Assembly (NCBI RefSeq): GCF_030384885.1
Contig: NZ_CP128613.1
Origin: Escherichia coli
GTDB taxonomy: Bacteria > Pseudomonadota > Gammaproteobacteria > Enterobacterales > Enterobacteriaceae
Strand: one strand, 5' to 3'
DNA: 64,000 nt
The notes beneath the pieces were generated by a model. That model was not told the DNA's origin, ran no database searches, and saw nothing but the letters and a program-made list of their open reading frames with translations. The translations under genes and the position numbers were made by a program. Below, one piece after another: positions 1 through 9,569 of the stretch; the stretch's first letter is position 1, and every line of letters begins with the position of its first letter.

Positions 1-71
1 TAAAAAACATTCTGACAGAAGAAAATATTTTTCTTTATTAGCGGTAGTTTTATTTATTGCGTTTTCAGGAG
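1..71 (+). pseudogene. emrK: emrK 5' fragment (N-terminal membrane-anchor region), cut off by window edge and separated from the rest of the gene by IS2
   Basis: Frame reads ..KKHSDRRKYFSLLAVVLFIAFSG and is codon-continuous with the sequence after IS2 (AYAYWSLELEDMISTDDAYVTGN..) once the element and one copy of AGGAG are removed; matches EmrA/EmrK-type periplasmic adaptor N-terminus. Confidence 0.8.
67..71. repeat. IS2 target-site duplication copy 1 (AGGAG)
   Basis: Identical 5-mer directly abuts both IS2 ends (67..71 and 1403..1407). Confidence 0.8.
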
Positions 72-82
72 TGGATTTGCCC

Positions 83-988
83 CTATATTTCCAGACACCT
101 GTTATCACTTAACCCATTACTGGCCTGCTGCCGTAGATATTCCCGTGGCGAGCGATAACCCAGTGCACTATGCGGATGCCATTCGTTATAATGCTCGAAC
201 GCCTCTGCAAGGTTCTTTGCTGCCGTTAACCCGTCTGGTTTAGGCATGACACTGATGTAGTCACGCTTTATCGTTTTCACGAAGCTCTCTGCTATGCCGT
301 TACTCTCCGGACTCCGCACCGCCGTGTTCTTCGGTTCAAGCCCCAACATCCGGGCAAACTGCCGTGTTTCATTAGCCCGGTAGCATGAACCATTATCCGT
401 CAGCCACTCTACTGGAGACGCCGGAAGCTCGTTGCCGAAGCGGCGTTCAACCGCTCCCAGCATGACGTCCTGTACTGTTTCACTGTCGAAGCCGCCCGTA
501 GTGACCGCCCAGTACAGTGCCTCACGGTCACAGCAGTCCAGCGCGAACGTGACTCGCAGTTTTTCTCCGTTATCACAGCGGAACTCGAACCCGTCAGAGC
601 ACCATCGTTGATTGCTTTCTTTCACGGCCACTTTGCCAGTATGTGCCCGCTTCGATGGCGGTACAGCGGTTTTTCGCTCAAGCAACAGCGCATTCTGGCG
701 CATGATCCGGTAAACACGTTTGGCATTGATCGCAGGCATACCATCAAGTTCGGCCTGTCTGCGAAGCAGCGCCCATACCCGACGATAACCATACGTGGGC
801 AGCTCTCCGATAACATGGTGTATACGGAGAAGTACATCCATATCATCTGAGTGACGGCTGCGGCGACCATCTTTCCAGTCATCGGTTCGTCTGAGAATGA
901 CGTGCAACTGCGCACGCGACACCCGGAGACAACGGCTGACTAAGCTTACTCCCCATCCCCGGGCAATAAGGGCGCGTGCGCTATCCAC
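83..988 (-). CDS. insD: IS2 transposase OrfB (InsD), DDE integrase-like
   Basis: 301-aa ORF; sequence recalled as IS2 InsD (IS3 family). Confidence 0.9.
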
Positions 989-1311
989 TTTTTTGCACGC
1001 CCATATTCAACGGCTTCTTTAAGGAGTTCATTTTCCATCGTTTTTTTGCCGAGCAGGCGCTGGAGTTCTTTAATCTGCTTCATGGCAGCAGCAAGTTCAG
1101 AGGCAGGAACGACCTGTTCTCCTGCGGCCACAGCAGTAAGACTTCCCTCCTGGTATTGCTTGCGCCAGAGAAATAGCTGGCTGGCTGCCACACCGTGTTG
1201 CCGGGCAACAAGGGAGACCGTCATTCCCGGTTCAAAACTCTGCTGAACAATAGCGATCTTTTCCTGTGTAGTACGCCGTCTGCGTTTCTCCGGTCCTAAG
1301 ACATCAATCAT
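946..1311 (-). CDS. insC: IS2 OrfA (InsC), HTH regulator/transposase N-terminal part
   Basis: 121 aa from [24 protein letters not shown]..; overlaps insD as expected for frameshift-type IS3 family. Confidence 0.85.
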
Positions 1312-1402
1312 CTGCTCTCCAATGACTAGTCTAAAAACTAGTATTAAGACTATCACTTATTTAAGTGATATTGGTTGTCTGGAGATTCAGGGGGCCAGTC
1401 TA

Positions 1403-1407
1403 AGGAG
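1403..1407. repeat. IS2 target-site duplication copy 2 (AGGAG)
   Basis: Direct repeat of 67..71. Confidence 0.8.
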
Positions 1408-2480
1408 CCTATGCCTATTGGTCACTAGAATTAGAAGACATGATCAGTACAGATGACGCCTATGTTACGGGGAATGCTGATCCAATTTCTGCACAAGTCT
1501 CAGGCAGTGTCACTGTCGTTAATCATAAAGATACGAACTTTGTTCGACAGGGCGACATTTTAGTTTCACTGGATAAAACTGATGCTACGATTGCACTCAA
1601 TAAAGCTAAAAATAATCTGGCAAATATTGTGCGACAAACGAATAAACTATACTTACAGGATAAACAATACAGTGCCGAAGTCGCTTCAGCACGTATCCAG
1701 TATCAACAATCTTTAGAAGATTATAATCGTCGTGTGCCGCTAGCAAAGCAGGGGGTTATTTCAAAAGAAACGCTGGAGCACACCAAAGATACGTTAATAA
1801 GTAGCAAAGCGGCATTGAATGCAGCTATTCAGGCTTATAAAGCGAACAAAGCCTTAGTAATGAACACACCATTAAATCGCCAGCCACAAGTTGTTGAAGC
1901 TGCGGATGCAACCAAAGAAGCCTGGTTAGCGCTTAAGCGTACGGATATTAAGAGTCCGGTTACTGGTTATATTGCCCAGCGAAGTGTGCAGGTTGGCGAA
2001 ACAGTGAGTCCTGGACAATCGTTAATGGCTGTCGTACCGGCACGTCAAATGTGGGTTAATGCCAACTTTAAAGAAACACAACTCACGGATGTACGGATTG
2101 GTCAATCGGTTAATATAATCAGCGATCTTTATGGTGAAAATGTTGTGTTTCATGGTCGGGTGACAGGGATCAATATGGGAACCGGCAATGCGTTCTCCTT
2201 ATTACCTGCACAAAATGCGACGGGGAACTGGATCAAAATCGTTCAGCGTGTACCTGTTGAGGTGTCTCTGGATCCAAAAGAACTCATGGAACATCCCTTG
2301 CGCATTGGTTTATCGATGACTGCAACCATTGATACCAGGAACGAAGACATTGCCGATATGCCTGATCTGGCTTCATCCGTGACGTCCATGCCTGCTTACA
2401 CCAGTAAGGCCTTAGTTATCGATACCAGTCCGATAGAAAAAGAGATTAACAACATTATTTCTCATAATGGACAACTTTAA
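1403..2480 (+). pseudogene. emrK: emrK 3' portion (EmrA-family membrane fusion protein), separated from its promoter and first ~35 codons by IS2
   Basis: ORF track 1440..2480 (346 aa) is EmrA/EmrK-like; frame is open back to the IS2 junction at 1403. Confidence 0.85.
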
Positions 2481-4018
2481 TGGCAATCACTAAATCAACT
2501 CCGGCACCATTAACCGGTGGGACGTTATGGTGCGTCACTATTGCGTTGTCATTAGCGACGTTTATGCAAATGTTGGACTCCACTATTTCTAACGTCGCAA
2601 TACCCACAATATCTGGCTTTCTCGGAGCATCAACGGACGAAGGCACATGGGTTATCACATCGTTTGGCGTAGCAAATGCCATTGCGATCCCTGTTACCGG
2701 CAGGCTGGCACAAAGAATAGGCGAATTAAGGTTATTTTTACTATCAGTAACCTTCTTTTCGCTGTCTTCATTAATGTGTAGTCTTTCGACTAATCTTGAT
2801 GTTCTTATATTTTTTAGAGTCGTCCAGGGATTAATGGCGGGGCCGTTAATTCCATTGTCACAGAGTTTATTATTAAGGAATTATCCGCCAGAAAAAAGAA
2901 CATTTGCTTTGGCGTTATGGTCAATGACCGTAATTATCGCTCCGATTTGTGGGCCGATATTGGGTGGCTATATTTGTGATAACTTTAGTTGGGGATGGAT
3001 ATTTTTAATCAATGTCCCTATGGGGATTATCGTCCTGACATTATGTTTAACTTTACTTAAAGGAAGAGAAACTGAAACTTCACCGGTCAAAATGAATTTA
3101 CCAGGGTTGACCCTGTTAGTGCTCGGTGTTGGTGGCTTGCAAATTATGCTTGATAAAGGGCGCGATCTGGATTGGTTCAACTCGAGTACAATAATAATAT
3201 TAACAGTAGTATCAGCTATTTCTCTGATCTCTTTAGTCATTTGGGAGTCGACCTCAGAGAACCCGATTCTTGACCTCAGTTTGTTTAAGTCCCGTAATTT
3301 CACCATTGGTATTGTGAGTATCACCTGCGCGTATTTATTTTACTCTGGAGCGATAGTACTTATGCCGCAGTTACTCCAGGAAACGATGGGGTATAATGCG
3401 ATATGGGCCGGACTTGCTTATGCGCCCATCGGCATCATGCCACTATTGATTTCGCCTTTGATAGGACGTTATGGCAACAAAATAGACATGCGGGTGTTAG
3501 TGACATTTAGTTTTTTGATGTATGCGGTTTGCTATTACTGGCGTTCTGTGACATTTATGCCAACGATTGATTTCACAGGCATCATTTTGCCACAGTTTTT
3601 CCAGGGATTCGCCGTTGCCTGTTTCTTTTTACCCTTAACAACGATTTCGTTTTCAGGGTTGCCAGATAATAAATTTGCCAATGCCTCGAGTATGAGTAAT
3701 TTTTTTCGTACCCTGTCAGGATCAGTTGGTACGTCGTTGACAATGACGTTGTGGGGACGACGCGAATCGTTACACCATAGTCAGTTGACAGCAACCATCG
3801 ATCAATTTAACCCCGTGTTTAATTCATCATCACAAATTATGGATAAATACTATGGTTCGCTTTCAGAGGTTCTTAATGAAATTAATAATGAAATAACTCA
3901 GCAGTCACTTTCAATTTCTGCAAATGAGATTTTCCGTATGGCGGCTATTGCTTTTATCTTACTTACGGTATTGGTTTGGTTTGCGAAACCGCCGTTTACA
4001 GCGAAAGGTGTTGGGTGA
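2480..4018 (+). CDS. emrY: MFS multidrug efflux transporter EmrY (EmrB paralogue)
   Basis: 512-aa 14-TM MFS protein; start overlaps emrK stop (TAATG). Confidence 0.93.
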   Translation: MAITKSTPAPLTGGTLWCVTIALSLATFMQMLDSTISNVAIPTISGFLGASTDEGTWVITSFGVANAIAIPVTGRLAQRIGELRLFLLSVTFFSLSSLMCSLSTNLDVLIFFRVVQGLMAGPLIPLSQSLLLRNYPPEKRTFALALWSMTVIIAPICGPILGGYICDNFSWGWIFLINVPMGIIVLTLCLTLLKGRETETSPVKMNLPGLTLLVLGVGGLQIMLDKGRDLDWFNSSTIIILTVVSAISLISLVIWESTSENPILDLSLFKSRNFTIGIVSITCAYLFYSGAIVLMPQLLQETMGYNAIWAGLAYAPIGIMPLLISPLIGRYGNKIDMRVLVTFSFLMYAVCYYWRSVTFMPTIDFTGIILPQFFQGFAVACFFLPLTTISFSGLPDNKFANASSMSNFFRTLSGSVGTSLTMTLWGRRESLHHSQLTATIDQFNPVFNSSSQIMDKYYGSLSEVLNEINNEITQQSLSISANEIFRMAAIAFILLTVLVWFAKPPFTAKGVG

Positions 4019-4097
4019 TGGTAAAAAGAGGAGGCTAGAGCAGGCAAGTCCGCGGAATTTTGAACCTGTACCATCATTTTATATGGATATTATCAGG

Positions 4098-4134
4098 CAG
4101 CATCGCTCACCCAGGGAAAGGATGGCGATGCTGC
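4098..4134. terminator. 10-bp inverted repeat (GCAGCATCGC..GCGATGCTGC) between convergent emrY and dsdA
   Basis: Stem-loop seen in sequence; no clear U-run, so terminator function is uncertain. Confidence 0.3.
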
Positions 4135-4146
4135 GGTGAAACGTTA

Positions 4147-5475
4147 TTAACGGCCTTTAGCCAGATATTGCTTCATCTCTTCTTCCGGCACCATTCCACC
4201 TCCTGTCGCCCACACCAGATGAGTGGCATTACGCAGTTGTTCTGTGCTGAAACCTTGCATCTGTTGGTAAATTACTGATGCGCACACGCGCTGAGGCCCG
4301 GCCATACCCGCCAGTGCTGAAGGCTCAAGACGAATGTCTTCTTCCTGCGCCAGCCAGCCAAGCATGTCATACATGGTTTGATCGCTAAGGGTATAGAAGC
4401 CATCCAGCAGACGCTCCATTGCCCGCCCGACAAAGCCTGATGCGCGACCAACTGCAAGGCCATCCGCGGCGGTAAGGTTGTCGATACCAATATCCTGAAC
4501 AGAAATCTGATCGTGTAATCCAGTATGGACGCCTAACAGCATACAAGGGGAGTGCGTGGGTTCGGCAAAAAAGCAGTGAACATGATCGCCAAACGCCAGT
4601 TTAAGCCCGAATGCGACGCCACCAGGACCACCGCCAACGCCACACGGCAGATAGACAAACAGAGGGTTATCAGCATCGACAATACGACCTTGCTCGGCAA
4701 ATTGCGCTTTAAGACGCTGGCCTGCGACGGAATACCCAAGGAACAACGTGCGGGAATTCTCGTCATCAATAAAGAAACAGTTCGGGTCAGACTGCGCTGC
4801 TTTACGTCCTTCCTCGACGGCAACCCCATAATCTTGCTCATATTCCACGACCGTAACGCCATGGCTGCGCAGTTTCGCTTTTTTCCATGCCCGGGCATCA
4901 GCAGACATATGTACTGTCACCTTAAAGCCAATGCGGGCGCTCATAATACCGATTGATAACCCCAGATTTCCGGTTGAGCCCACAGCAATGCTGTATTGGC
5001 TAAAGAACTGCTTAAACTCCGGAGAAAGCAGTTTGCTGTAGTCATCTTCAAGCGTCAGCAACCCTGCTTCCAGAGCCAGTTTTTCTGCATGTGCCAGGAC
5101 TTCATAAATCCCGCCGCGTGCTTTTATGGAGCCGGAAATAGGCAAATGGCTATCTTTTTTCAGTAACAGTTGCCCGCTGATCGGTTGCTGATATTCCTTT
5201 TCCAGCCGTTTTTGCATAGCCGGAATGGCAACCAGTTCTGATTCAATAATCCCTCCAGAGGCAGCCGTTTCAGGAAATGCTTTTGCCAGATAGGGGGCAA
5301 AACGAGATAAGCGCGCATGGGCGTCCTGAACATCCTGTTCGGTCAGGCCAACATAAGGTAAACCTTCAGCCAATGAGGTCGTGCCAGGATTGAACCAGGT
5401 GGTTTCTTTAAGAGCAACCAGATCCTTTACCAACGGATACTGGGCGATGAGCGAGTTCATTTTAGCGTTTTCCAT
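4147..5475 (-). CDS. dsdA: D-serine ammonia-lyase (D-serine dehydratase), PLP-dependent
   Basis: 442-aa ORF recognised as DsdA. Confidence 0.95.
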
Positions 5476-5675
5476 AGTATGTCTCTTTGCGCTTCGATGA
5501 TAAATGACAGCAGGAATGTGCCCGCCAGAGCGACGACTGAAGCGATAAATGTCGCTGTCGTATAGTATTTATATGTTTCACTGAGCGTAGCGCCGCAAAA
5601 TTGTTTCATCAGCCAGAAAAACGAGTCCGTAACGATCGTGCAGCCAATCGCAATAATTTCCGGGCTGATGTCTGG
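5457..5675 (-). pseudogene. dsdX: 3' remnant of dsdX (GntP-family D-serine transporter), about 72 codons
   Basis: Minus-strand frame translates ..[45 protein letters not shown].., typical GntP-family C-terminus; the frame is closed by stops upstream of about 5675; exact 3' end and overlap with dsdA start uncertain. Confidence 0.55.
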
Positions 5676-5931
5676 TTACAGCCACAGCACAATGATCCAT
5701 ATTTATATTTTTTCTCCGGGTGGGTGATGCCAGTCGGCATGTTTTACCTACTTGTCTGCATGGTGACTCGTTGGCGAGAACAGAGGCGGAATTGGTTACA
5801 ATTGTCCGGGAATTCTTGTTATTTTTTACTGTATTGTCGTGTCGGGTGATAGGACGTTAAGAATATCGCTGGATCTCGCCAGTGACGTCTGTTTCTGCTA
5901 CAGTGCCCGTTTTACGGCAAACGGCTTGGGT

Positions 5932-6927
5932 ATGGCTTCATTAAAGGATGTCGCACGCCTGGCGGGAGTGTCGATGATGACTGTCTCCCGGGTGATGCAT
6001 AATGCAGAATCTGTGCGTCCTGCAACGCGTGACCGCGTATTGCAGGCAATCCAAACCCTGAATTATGTTCCTGATCTTTCCGCTCGTAAGATGCGCGCTC
6101 AGGGACGTAAGCCGTCGACTCTCGCCGTGCTGGCGCAGGATACTGCTACCACTCCTTTCTCTGTTGATATTCTGCTTGCCATTGAACAAACCGCCAGCGA
6201 GTTTGGCTGGAATAGTTTTTTAATCAATATTTTTTCTGAAGATGACGCTGCCCGCGCGGCACGTCAGCTGCTTGCCCTCCGTCCGGATGGCATTATCTAT
6301 ACTACAATGGGACTGAGGCATATCACGCTGCCTGAGTCTCTGCATGGTGAAAATATTGTATTGGCGAACTGTGTGGCGGATGACCCAGCGTTACCCAGTT
6401 ATATCCCTGATGATTACACTGCCCAATATGAAGCAACACAGCATTTGCTCGCGGCGGGCTATCGTCAACCGTTATGCTTCTGGCTACCGGAAGGTGCGTT
6501 GGCAACAGGGTATCGTCGGCAGGGATTTGAGCAGGCCTGGCGTGATGCTGGACGAGATCTGGCTGAGGTGAAACAATTTCACATGGCCATAGGTGATGAT
6601 CACTACACCGATCTCGCAAGTATACTCAATGCCCACTTCCAGTCTGTAAAACCAGATTTTGATGTTCTGATTTGTGGTAACGATCGCGCAGCCTTTGTTG
6701 CTTATCAGGTTCTTCTGGCGAAGGGGGTACGTATCCCGCAGGATGTCGCCGTAATGGGCTTTGATAATCTGGTTGGCGTCGGGCATCTGTTTTTACCGCC
6801 GCTGACCACAATTCAGCTTCCACATGACATTATCGGGCGGGAAGCTGCATTGCATATTATTGAAGGTCGTGAAGGGGGAAGGGTAACGCAGATCCCTTGC
6901 CCGCTGTTGATCCGTTGTTCCACCTGA
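5932..6927 (+). CDS. cscR: LacI-family repressor of sucrose genes, CscR
   Basis: 331 aa from MASLKDVARLAGVSMMTVSRV (HTH) with periplasmic-binding-fold body; the ORF-track start at 5839 is probably an upstream extension. Confidence 0.9.
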   Translation: MASLKDVARLAGVSMMTVSRVMHNAESVRPATRDRVLQAIQTLNYVPDLSARKMRAQGRKPSTLAVLAQDTATTPFSVDILLAIEQTASEFGWNSFLINIFSEDDAARAARQLLALRPDGIIYTTMGLRHITLPESLHGENIVLANCVADDPALPSYIPDDYTAQYEATQHLLAAGYRQPLCFWLPEGALATGYRRQGFEQAWRDAGRDLAEVKQFHMAIGDDHYTDLASILNAHFQSVKPDFDVLICGNDRAAFVAYQVLLAKGVRIPQDVAVMGFDNLVGVGHLFLPPLTTIQLPHDIIGREAALHIIEGREGGRVTQIPCPLLIRCST

Positions 6928-6934
6928 TATTATG

Positions 6935-8368
6935 TTACCCCAGTTGCCAGAGTGCTCCATGTTGCAGCACGCCCACTCCGTGGGCGGCATAGAGCGACAG
7001 TTCCCGTTCTTCTGGCTGCGGATAGATTCGGCTACTCATCACAGCTTCCCCGTCGTTAATAAATACTTCCACGGATGATGTATCGATAAATATCCTTAGG
7101 GCGAGCGTGTCACGCTGCGGGAGGGGAATACTACGGTAACCATCTAAATTCTCGTGTGGGTAATACCGCCACAAAACAAGTCGCTCAGATTGGTTATCAA
7201 TATACAGCCGCATTCCCGTGCCGAGCTGTAATCCGTAATGTTCGGCATCGCTGTTCTTCAGAGCCCACTGCAACTGAATCTCAACCGCTTGCGCGTTTTC
7301 CTGCAAAACATATTTGTTGCTGATTGTGTGGGGAGAGATTGATTGATGCTGCTGGCGTAACGACTCAGCTTCGTGTACCGGGCGTTGTAGGAGTTTGCCA
7401 TTGCTCTCAGATAGCTCGCGCGCCAGCGTCATGCAGCCTGCCCAGCCTTCACGTTTTGAGGGCATTGGCGATTCCCACATATCCATCCAGCCGATAACAA
7501 TACGCCGACCATCCTTCGCTAAAAAGCTTTGTGGTGCATAAAAGTCATGCCCATAATCAAGTTCAGTAAAATGCCCGGATTGTGCAAAAAGTCGTCCTGG
7601 CGACCATATTCCGGGTATTACACCACTTTGAAAGCGATTTCGATAATTGTATCCCTCGGCATTCATTCCCTGCGGGGAAAACATCAGATAATGTTGATCG
7701 CCAAGGCTGAAAAAGTCCGGACATTCCCACATATAGCTTTCACCCGCATCAGCGTGGGCCAGTACGCGATCGAAAGTCCATTCACGCAATGAACTACCGC
7801 GATAAAGCAGGATCTGTCCCGTGTTGCCTGGGTCTTTCGCCCCGACTACCATCCACCAGGTGTCGGCTTCACGCCACACTTTAGGATCGCGGAAGTGCAT
7901 GATTCCTTCTGGTGGAGTGAGGATCACACCTTGTTTCTCGAAATGAATACCATCCCGGCTGGTAGCCAGACATTGTACTTCACGAATTGCATCGTCATTA
8001 CCTGCACCATCGAGCCAGACGTGGCCGGTGTAGATAAGTGAGAGGACACCATTGTCATCAACAGCACTACCTGAAAAACACCCGTCTTTGTCATTCTCGT
8101 CTCCTGGCGCTAGCGCAATAGGCTCGTGCTGCCAGTGGATCATATCGTCGCTGGTGGCATGTCCCCAGTGCATTGGCCCCCAGTGTTCGCTCATCGGGTG
8201 ATGCTGATAAAACGCGTGATAACGATTGTTAAACCAGATCAGGCCGTTTGGATCGTTCATCCACCCGGCTGGAGGCGCGAGGTGAAAATGGGGATAAAAA
8301 GTATTCCCCCGGCGCTCGTGAAGTTTTGCTAGTGCGTTTTGCGCCGCATGCAATCGAGATTGCGTCAT
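6935..8368 (-). CDS. cscA: Sucrose-6-phosphate hydrolase / invertase (GH32), CscA
   Basis: GH32 motifs WMNDPNG, FRDP, EC present; start taken at MTQSRLHAAQ (477 aa). Confidence 0.92.
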   Translation of the reverse strand: MTQSRLHAAQNALAKLHERRGNTFYPHFHLAPPAGWMNDPNGLIWFNNRYHAFYQHHPMSEHWGPMHWGHATSDDMIHWQHEPIALAPGDENDKDGCFSGSAVDDNGVLSLIYTGHVWLDGAGNDDAIREVQCLATSRDGIHFEKQGVILTPPEGIMHFRDPKVWREADTWWMVVGAKDPGNTGQILLYRGSSLREWTFDRVLAHADAGESYMWECPDFFSLGDQHYLMFSPQGMNAEGYNYRNRFQSGVIPGIWSPGRLFAQSGHFTELDYGHDFYAPQSFLAKDGRRIVIGWMDMWESPMPSKREGWAGCMTLARELSESNGKLLQRPVHEAESLRQQHQSISPHTISNKYVLQENAQAVEIQLQWALKNSDAEHYGLQLGTGMRLYIDNQSERLVLWRYYPHENLDGYRSIPLPQRDTLALRIFIDTSSVEVFINDGEAVMSSRIYPQPEERELSLYAAHGVGVLQHGALWQLG

Positions 8369-8402
8369 TTTAATCATCCTGGTTAAGCAAATTTGGTGAA
8401 TT

Positions 8403-8414
8403 GTTAACGTTAAC
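8403..8414. promoter_or_regulatory. Palindrome GTTAACGTTAAC, copy 1 (candidate LacI-family/CscR operator)
   Basis: Perfect 12-bp palindrome with central CG in cscA-cscK divergent region. Confidence 0.4.
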
Positions 8415-8447
8415 TTTTATAAAAATAAAGCCCCTTATCTTTATAAA

Positions 8448-8463
8448 TGTGATTAATATCACA
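8448..8463. promoter_or_regulatory. CRP (cAMP receptor protein) binding site TGTGATTAATATCACA
   Basis: Perfect match to both CRP half-sites TGTGA-N6-TCACA. Confidence 0.55.
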
Positions 8464-8466
8464 AAT

Positions 8467-8478
8467 GTTAACGTTAAC
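8467..8478. promoter_or_regulatory. Palindrome GTTAACGTTAAC, copy 2 (candidate CscR operator)
   Basis: Second identical 12-bp palindrome 64 bp from the first. Confidence 0.4.
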
Positions 8479-8583
8479 TATGACGTTTTGTGATCGAATG
8501 TGCATGTTTTAGTAAATCCATGACGATTTTGCGAAAAAGAGGTTTATCACTATGCGTAAGTCAGATGAATTTGAGGGAAAAAA

Positions 8584-9498
8584 ATGTCAGCCAAAGTATG
8601 GGTTTTAGGGGATGCGGTTGTCGATCTCTTGCCTGAATCAGACGGGCGCCTACTGCCTTGTCCTGGCGGCGCGCCAGCTAACGTTGCGGTGGGAATCGCC
8701 AGATTAGGCGGAATAAGTGGGTTTATAGGCCGGGTGGGTGATGATCCTTTTGGCGCGTTAATGCAAAGAACGCTGCTAACGGAGGGAGTCGATATCACGT
8801 ATCTGAAGCAGGATGAATGGCACCGAACATCCACGGTGCTTGTCGATCTGAACGATCAGGGGGAACGTTCATTTACGTTTATGGTCCGCCCTAGTGCCGA
8901 TCTTTTTTTAGAGACGACTGACTTGCCCTTCTGGCGACATGGCGAATGGTTACATCTCTGTTCTATTGCGTTGTCTGCTGAACCTTCGCGTACCAGCGCA
9001 TTTACTGCGATGACGGCGATCCGGCATGCCGGAGGTTTTGTCAGCTTCGATCCCAATATTCGTGAAGATCTGTGGCAAGACGAGCATTTGCTCCGCTTGT
9101 GTTTGCGACAGGCGCTACAACTGGCGGATGTCGTCAAGCTCTCGGAAGAAGAATGGCGACTTATCAGCGGAAAAACACAGAACGATCGGGATATATGTGC
9201 TCTGGCAAAAGAGTATGAGATCGCCATGCTGTTGGTGACTAAAGGTGCAGAAGGGGTGGTGGTCTGTTATCGAGGACAAGTTCACCATTTTGCTGGAATG
9301 TCTGTGAATTGTGTCGATAGCACGGGGGCGGGAGATGCGTTCGTTGCCGGGTTACTCACAGGTCTTTCCTCTACGGGATTAGAGACCGATGAGAGAGAAA
9401 TGCGACGAATTATCGATCTCGCTCAACGTTGCGGAGCGCTTGCAGTAACGGCGAAAGGGGCAATGACAGCGCTGCCATGTCGACAAGATCTGGAATAG
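8584..9498 (+). CDS. cscK: Fructokinase (PfkB/ribokinase family), CscK
   Basis: 304-aa sugar-kinase ORF with GAGD motif region. Confidence 0.9.
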   Translation: MSAKVWVLGDAVVDLLPESDGRLLPCPGGAPANVAVGIARLGGISGFIGRVGDDPFGALMQRTLLTEGVDITYLKQDEWHRTSTVLVDLNDQGERSFTFMVRPSADLFLETTDLPFWRHGEWLHLCSIALSAEPSRTSAFTAMTAIRHAGGFVSFDPNIREDLWQDEHLLRLCLRQALQLADVVKLSEEEWRLISGKTQNDRDICALAKEYEIAMLLVTKGAEGVVVCYRGQVHHFAGMSVNCVDSTGAGDAFVAGLLTGLSSTGLETDEREMRRIIDLAQRCGALAVTAKGAMTALPCRQDLE

Positions 9499-9569
9499 TG
9501 AGAAATAAACGGCGAGGCCGTTCTTGTCTCTGAATAGGACGTGAATATTTTAACGACAGGCAGGTAATT

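Follow-up and report, generated by a model that had tools for sequence, protein, structure and literature searches.

The emrKY operon, which in Escherichia coli and Shigella provides the EmrKY-TolC pump, is under the control of EvgSA (PMC6393483). EmrKY confers little drug resistance unless it is overexpressed, and it helps Shigella to survive in macrophages (PMC6393483). The insertion sequence IS2 transposes by way of a figure-of-eight and a minicircle intermediate, the latter bringing the inverted repeats IRR and IRL together so that a strong and transient promoter, Pjunc, is formed, which exists only where the two ends abut in this way; the weaker native promoter of the element, P_IRL, lies in IRL, points inward and is adjoined by a sequence that binds the OrfA repressor (PMC3299598). 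Elements of the IS3 family, IS2 included, can furthermore contribute the outward -35 hexamer of fusion promoters, and this hexamer sits in IRR (PMC9330008), with ampC, acrEF and neoR given as known cases for IS2 (Jaurin and Normark, 1983, as cited in PMC9330008).

In the stretch of DNA analyzed here, 64,000 nucleotides in length and referred to in the following as the window, emrY and the synteny downstream of it are kept as in the intact operon, whereas the adaptor gene emrK is cut after codon 30, such that the promoter, the start codon and part of the transmembrane (TM) anchor are separated from the remainder. The features of the interrupted locus, with their positions in the window, are listed below.

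1..71, plus strand: emrK 5' fragment (nt 21-91; residues ~8-30, with the TM anchor up to two-thirds of its length), from an exact alignment with intact emrK and from hydropathy
67..71: AGGAG target-site duplication, left copy
72..1402, minus strand: complete IS2, 1,331 bp, collinear with K-12 IS2A and present as a 100% copy in H20
72..112, minus strand: IRR, 41 bp, its outward face toward the emrK 5' fragment and evgA, from its exact 26-nt tip (PMC3299598; PMC9330008)
83..988, minus strand: orfB (insD, DDE transposase frame, 301 aa), from the ORF list and NCBIfam TnpB
110..112, plus strand: TAA stop of the truncated EmrK fusion peptide
946..1311, minus strand: orfA (insC, 121-aa regulator), from NCBIfam TnpA
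988..994, minus strand: A6G (AAAAAAG) site of programmed -1 frameshifting, joining orfA and orfB into the 409-aa OrfAB
1361..1402, minus strand: IRL, 42 bp, with the inward promoter P_IRL, adjoining emrK', from its exact canonical tip (PMC3299598)
1403..1407: AGGAG target-site duplication, right copy
1403..2480, plus strand: emrK 3' portion (emrK', nt 87-1164 with the stop codon), without promoter, from exact match to intact emrK
1440..2480, plus strand: residual ORF from Met42, 346 aa, without TM anchor, its start being the sole one in frame over the ~190 nt past the junction
2480..4018, plus strand: emrY (512 aa, DHA2 MFS permease), intact, its ATG overlapping the emrK stop

The arrangement is best explained if an intact IS2 has recently moved by simple transposition into emrK, at codons 29-31, in a lineage near-identical to E. 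coli 2013C-4282, yielding an allele that is predicted to be both null and polar; we put the probability of this reading at roughly 0.85.

On every sequence criterion tested, the inserted element belongs to IS2 of the IS3 family. As proposed in the initial annotation, a complete copy occupies 72..1402 on the minus strand, and comparison with IS2A of K-12 MG1655 (NC_000913.3, 381260-382590) revealed the same length of 1,331 bp, the same terminal sequences and the same layout of orfA, A6G and orfB, the two copies being collinear with 60 substitutions and no indels (95.5% identity; 14 of 409 OrfAB residues changed). Both copies are flanked by a target duplication of 5 bp, ATTAC in the case of K-12 IS2A and AGGAG in emrK. 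The left end of the element starts with TGGATTTGCCCCTATATTTCCAGACA, the IS2 IRR terminus, while the right end is the reverse complement of TAGACTGGCCCCCTGAATCTCCAGACA, the IRL terminus. The ends are thus canonical, as had been supposed: IRL (TAGACTGGCCCCC...) and IRR (TGGATTTGCCCC...) constitute the imperfect inverted repeats typical of IS2, their tips are exact over 26-27 nt, and a single substitution relative to IS2A falls at IRR position 27. Each tip occurs once in the 64-kb window, which contains only this one pair of IS2 termini, and none of 100 shuffled sequences gave a match. The coding region is likewise preserved. orfA is intact with 121 codons and scores 276.4 bits against the NCBIfam model for the IS2 repressor TnpA (cut-off 229), OrfB scores 700.5 bits against that for the IS2 transposase TnpB (cut-off 597), the AAAAAAG slip site is correctly phased so that OrfAB is open over 409 aa, and a stable RNA structure (z = -3.09) is located directly 3' of the slip site; an Rfam scan of window positions 1..4200 returned no matches. 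The sequence requirements for transposition through the minicircle, i.e., both ends and an intact OrfAB, are present.

A copy with 100% identity occurs in E. coli WP2-S18-ESBL-08 (H20), and the 2,480-bp query found its best match at an identity of at least 99% in 1,196 records, the matched part normally being IS2; by this comparison, the IS2 sequence in emrK is a common variant. In the matching records, RefSeq names the IS2 copies merely "IS3 family transposase."

Both AGGAG copies abut the IS2 termini exactly, so that the duplication noted initially at 67..71 and 1403..1407 is perfect over its 5 bp, and the empty site in intact emrK carries the pentamer once. Removal of 72..1407, that is, of the element together with one AGGAG, re-establishes a single reading frame (..LFIAFSG|AYAYWSLELEDMISTDD..), again in agreement with the initial annotation. 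The contiguity of the two flanks in uninterrupted emrK was confirmed by alignment, as the restored 2,764 bp (1..71 joined to 1408..4100) recur without a single difference in the chromosomes of two complete genomes, E. coli 2013C-4282 and 162.2. While the odds for a chance match of one pentamer are ~1/1024, the exact restoration of 2,764 bp goes far beyond chance. Window position 1 corresponds to emrK nt 21 and the target AGGAG to emrK nt 87-91, which places the insertion after codon 30 (Gly30) and the target in codons 29-31. Two details of the first description need correction here: the promoter-proximal fragment comprises 30 codons rather than ~35, and the junction does not lie at the edge between membrane anchor and periplasmic part, because hydropathy locates the hydrophobic anchor at about residues 16-37 and the break falls within this TM helix.

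The restored protein of 387 aa is identical to RefSeq EmrK WP_001353058.1. It reaches 485.8 bits against the model for the EmrA/EmrK subfamily, TIGR00998 (cut-off 390.8), and with 495.6 bits stays below the cut-off of 563 for the EmrA equivalog, in keeping with its identity as the paralogue EmrK. In 2013C-4282 and 162.2 the RefSeq annotation shows an uninterrupted emrK; emrY and then dsdA lie downstream of it, and evgA-evgS lies upstream in divergent orientation. Identity to the RefSeq protein and synteny identify the target gene as emrK of the evgAS-emrKY locus, and the assignment to the EvgA-regulated operon made at the outset is upheld by annotated gene order and profile matches.

With regard to translation, the emrK start now reads through 30 EmrK codons and 13 codons encoded by IS2, giving a peptide of 43 aa that ends at the TAA in 110..112. 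Beyond the element, the ATG at 1440 is, as predicted, the first in-frame start past the junction and would yield a product of 346 aa that lacks the TM anchor; the second in-frame start is GTG at 1629. The anchorless EmrK' also has no export signal. An uninterrupted open reading frame with an N-terminal membrane anchor, as is expected of a functional emrK, is absent. The inactivation of EmrK is near certain, and by its sequence the emrK locus is a pseudogene.

Whether emrY is silenced by the insertion or driven from within IS2 had been left undecided, and the present analysis narrows the question toward silencing. The IS2 genes are encoded on the minus strand, so that the element is antiparallel to emrK; IRL adjoins emrK' and emrY, and IRR faces the emrK 5' fragment. 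A scan for consensus sigma-70 promoters found no site across the IRL/emrK' junction and three sites in 2.7 kb, compared to 3.5 expected. When the scan was relaxed, a single 8/12 match, TTAAGA-17-GATATT at 1344..1372 on the plus strand, appeared inside IS2 near IRL and directed toward emrK'; it is regarded as a chance match, being no better than expected at random. At the other end, no -10 element was detected at 16-18 nt from the -35-like hexamer TGGAAA of IRR, the hexamers at these spacings being CTCCTG, TCCTGA and CCTGAA. The fusion promoters of ampC, acrEF and neoR resemble emrK::IS2 in that IS2 has an efflux or resistance gene as its neighbor. In contrast to emrK::IS2, they have IRR beside the gene that is activated, with a -10 element at 16-18 bp. 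A hybrid promoter provided by IS2 was rejected on the grounds of orientation and missing -10 elements; no credible candidate is predicted at either junction. Judged from this architecture, emrK::IS2 acts as a knockout and not as an activator. Polar silencing of emrY is probable, since the outward -35 in IRR is directed away from emrY and the scans detected no hybrid promoter.

Several properties of the transcript bear on the same question. The plus strand inside IS2 showed no intrinsic terminator, which would permit some read-through from the emrK promoter. Such RNA would remain untranslated for ~1.3 kb past the stop at 110..112 and would be rich in C (388 C vs. 314 G on the plus strand of IS2, with several C-rich, G-poor windows of 78 nt), conditions that suggest Rho-dependent polarity. 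The classical work on gal::IS2 in the gal operon from the 1970s-80s reportedly found the antiparallel "orientation I" of IS2 to be strongly polar. The emrK stop and the emrY start overlap in TAATG (2478..2482), which implies translational coupling of the two genes. In the sequence of events that we propose, an intact IS2 would have transposed into emrK with duplication of the 5-bp target AGGAG, and EvgA-dependent transcripts initiated at the emrK promoter would now run into IS2 untranslated and mostly be ended by Rho-dependent polarity. The lost promoter would not be replaced by an outward or hybrid promoter, since the outward -35 of IS2 in IRR faces the other way. emrY would probably be poorly transcribed and, with coupling lost, also poorly translated, leaving the EmrKY-TolC pump non-functional. 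The resulting phenotype would probably be mild, EmrKY being a minor and conditionally expressed pump for drugs and bile salts.

At the emrK site, IS2 was absent from all 5,426 complete E. coli genomes, and the four matches that covered at least 80% of the 2,480-bp query all have IS2 in emrY. The closest genome, 2013C-4282 from human stool (USA), contains an intact emrK. It differs from window positions 4100-29000 by five mismatches, one gap and one indel of 3.7 kb, which is a prophage remnant; it is 100.0% identical over 29001-54000, which amounts to about 99.98-100% identity over 50 kb (4100-54000). A Shigella origin, which an IS-disrupted gene might suggest, was rejected in view of this near-identity to an E. 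coli stool isolate and of the single pair of IS2 termini in 64 kb. The presence of an intact emrK without IS2 in so similar a chromosome indicates that the insertion is very recent, in line with the relatively recent origin suggested initially. A contig assembled from SRR35948513 (L008), an independent public read set, is identical to window positions 760..6480 and extends from inside IS2 across IRL into emrK', emrY, dsdA and the csc regulator, thereby including the IRL/emrK' junction and confirming that the insertion is real. The exact junction gave no match in a collection of species-representative genomes or in JGI metagenome contigs.

The emrKY genes as such are retained in 5,382 of the 5,426 E. 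coli genomes. Four complete genomes (Eco_70239, GPEC1209/1210 and UTME-12) were found to carry IS2 in emrY; the insertions fall at three sites and represent three events. These share with emrK::IS2 a full-length element, 5-bp duplications and antiparallel orientation, give rise to annotated pseudogenes, and differ from it in their duplications (GTATG, ATTGG and ATGCG) and in IS2 variant (45-64 differences); none of them is in emrK. A further lesion, a 497-bp deletion spanning evgA-emrK, is present in DRR360889.

Among the alternatives to a null and polar allele, an incompletely polar insertion, with emrY and perhaps also the anchorless EmrK' from ATG 1440 expressed by read-through or from a weak promoter at the IRL end, is unlikely. 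It would be consistent with a plus strand of IS2 devoid of an intrinsic terminator, with the weak outward -35/-10 match at 1344..1372 and with the purine-rich AGAAGA located 5' of ATG 1440. This promoter match, however, remains at chance level with 8 of 12 positions, the standard scan detects nothing at the IRL/emrK' junction, and the known outward -35 of IS2 resides at the opposite end, in IRR. In addition, the ~1.3 kb of C-rich untranslated RNA favors termination by Rho, and initiation at emrY is coupled to translation of emrK via TAATG. Even if EmrK' were made, it would be expected to stay in the cytoplasm for want of anchor and export signal, so that the pump would be defective anyway.

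Highly improbable in our view is an adaptive or regulatory role of the insertion, be it through read-through from IS2 or an effect of the outward -35 of IRR on evgAS, the genes for the master regulator of acid resistance EvgSA, or through selection for the loss of EmrKY. The geometry is compatible with the former, as IRR faces the side of the emrK 5' fragment and evgA, evgA is transcribed in the direction of the IS2 transposase genes ~0.5 kb beyond IRR (the window begins inside emrK, and evgAS, outside it, was placed from the empty-site genomes), and the minus strand shows no terminator-like site from the orfB stop to window position 1. It is countered by the lack of a -10-like hexamer at the needed spacing from the -35-like hexamer of IRR, and P_IRL is the weaker native promoter with the OrfA repressor-binding sequence beside it (PMC3299598). 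For selection, the separate lesions in the operon may be cited, i.e., the IS2 insertions in emrY (three sites, four genomes) and the deletion in DRR360889. Uniform insertion, on the other hand, would put ~10 IS2 matches into a target of 2.7 kb over the whole collection, compared to the four genomes (three events) observed, so that IS2 is not enriched in emrKY, and the operon is conserved in nearly all genomes. The notion of emrKY as a hot spot for IS2 or as a case of convergent inactivation was rejected on the same numbers. The least probable explanation is an artefact of assembly, in which a copy of IS2 was wrongly placed in emrK by mis-joining of repeats. Repeats are a frequent cause of mis-assembly, IS2 is multicopy (the 2,480-bp query, its emrK' part included, matched a median of four places per genome), and the left junction was found nowhere else: a look-up of the 43-aa EmrK-IS2 fusion peptide gave no match, and this junction was not recovered from independent data. 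Against this, the perfect 5-bp duplication at the IS2 termini and the exact restoration of the empty site are the signature of transposition, and the SRR35948513 assembly contains the same IRL/emrK' junction. The artefact explanation is thus largely refuted.

Given the preferred reading of a recent simple transposition, emrK of this strain ought to be recorded as a pseudogene and EmrKY regarded as probably non-functional. Slight effects on bile-salt tolerance and on growth at mildly acidic pH with high K+ are possible, and intramacrophage survival phenotypes, which have been credited to EmrKY in Shigella (PMC6393483), could also shift slightly. An open-access literature search found no publications that mention emrK::IS2. 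The allele is new solely as a strain marker, the phenomenon as such being textbook knowledge, and its significance is limited in that it raises no new biological question. As a marker it is clean, separating this lineage from the near-identical 2013C-4282, and it indicates that an intact and presumably active variant of IS2 is mobile in the lineage.

Full-length IS2 copies also lie inside emrY in four complete E. coli genomes (strains Eco_70239, GPEC1209, GPEC1210 and UTME-12), where they represent three independent insertion events flanked by the target duplications GTATG, ATTGG and ATGCG.

IS2 copies within emrY of other complete E. coli genomes
5189..6519 of locus L001, IS2
4840..6170 of locus L002, IS2
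5191..6521 of locus L003, IS2

In all four genomes the element is antiparallel to the interrupted gene, as is the IS2 in emrK of the window. Two of the emrY sites lie just 2 bp from each other and hold distinct variants of IS2, a hint of local target preference.

Another type of damage is seen in the Logan contig from read set DRR360889, representing another strain, in which a deletion of ~497 bp (L007, ~3940..3960) is bounded by short TTATTGC repeats. Since everything between evgA and emrK is lost, along with the evgA start codon and the opening ~74 nt of emrK, this deletion is an independent lesion of both the evgA and the emrK promoters. The truncated 346-aa EmrK call recurs in contigs from SRR024141 (L010) and SRR23596976 (L009), both of which lack IS2, and has trivial causes there: one contig is missing a single nucleotide in an upstream A-run, possibly a homopolymer sequencing error, and the other begins with adaptor-like sequence (...AGATGTGTATAAGAGACAG), which we take to be Nextera.

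At the left IS2 junction of the window (62..89, plus strand), a sigma-70-like match at chance level, TTTTCA-16-TATATT, arises that points into IS2 on the strand opposite to the transposase genes. At the right junction (1403..1428, plus strand), the second copy of the AGGAG target resembles a Shine-Dalgarno motif and is followed after 3 nt by an out-of-frame ATG (1411) that starts a five-codon ORF, MPIGH*. Neither the promoter-like match nor this ORF is likely to be functional.

Further downstream, the window carries a sucrose-utilization island and a difference from its closest complete genome, 2013C-4282.

Features of the csc and tRNA-Arg(CCU) region in the window
5839..10817, sucrose-utilization (csc) island
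9570..10817, cscB
11247..11267, breakpoint of the prophage-remnant difference, between cscB and tRNA-Arg(CCU)
11253..11327, tRNA-Arg(CCU) gene, presumably argW

The island, comprising a LacI-family regulator, cscA, a kinase and an oligosaccharide MFS transporter, occupies the place of dsdC/dsdX in K-12; in an identical reference genome, dsdX is annotated as truncated, adjoining dsdA. Comparison of the near-identical genomes revealed a prophage remnant of ~3.66 kb next to tRNA-Arg(CCU) in 2013C-4282 that is missing from the window and contains torI, an intS fragment, and genes for a PACE transporter and a LysR regulator. Both breakpoints share 21 bp of sequence, suggesting that the remnant was either excised at att sites or is absent in the window.
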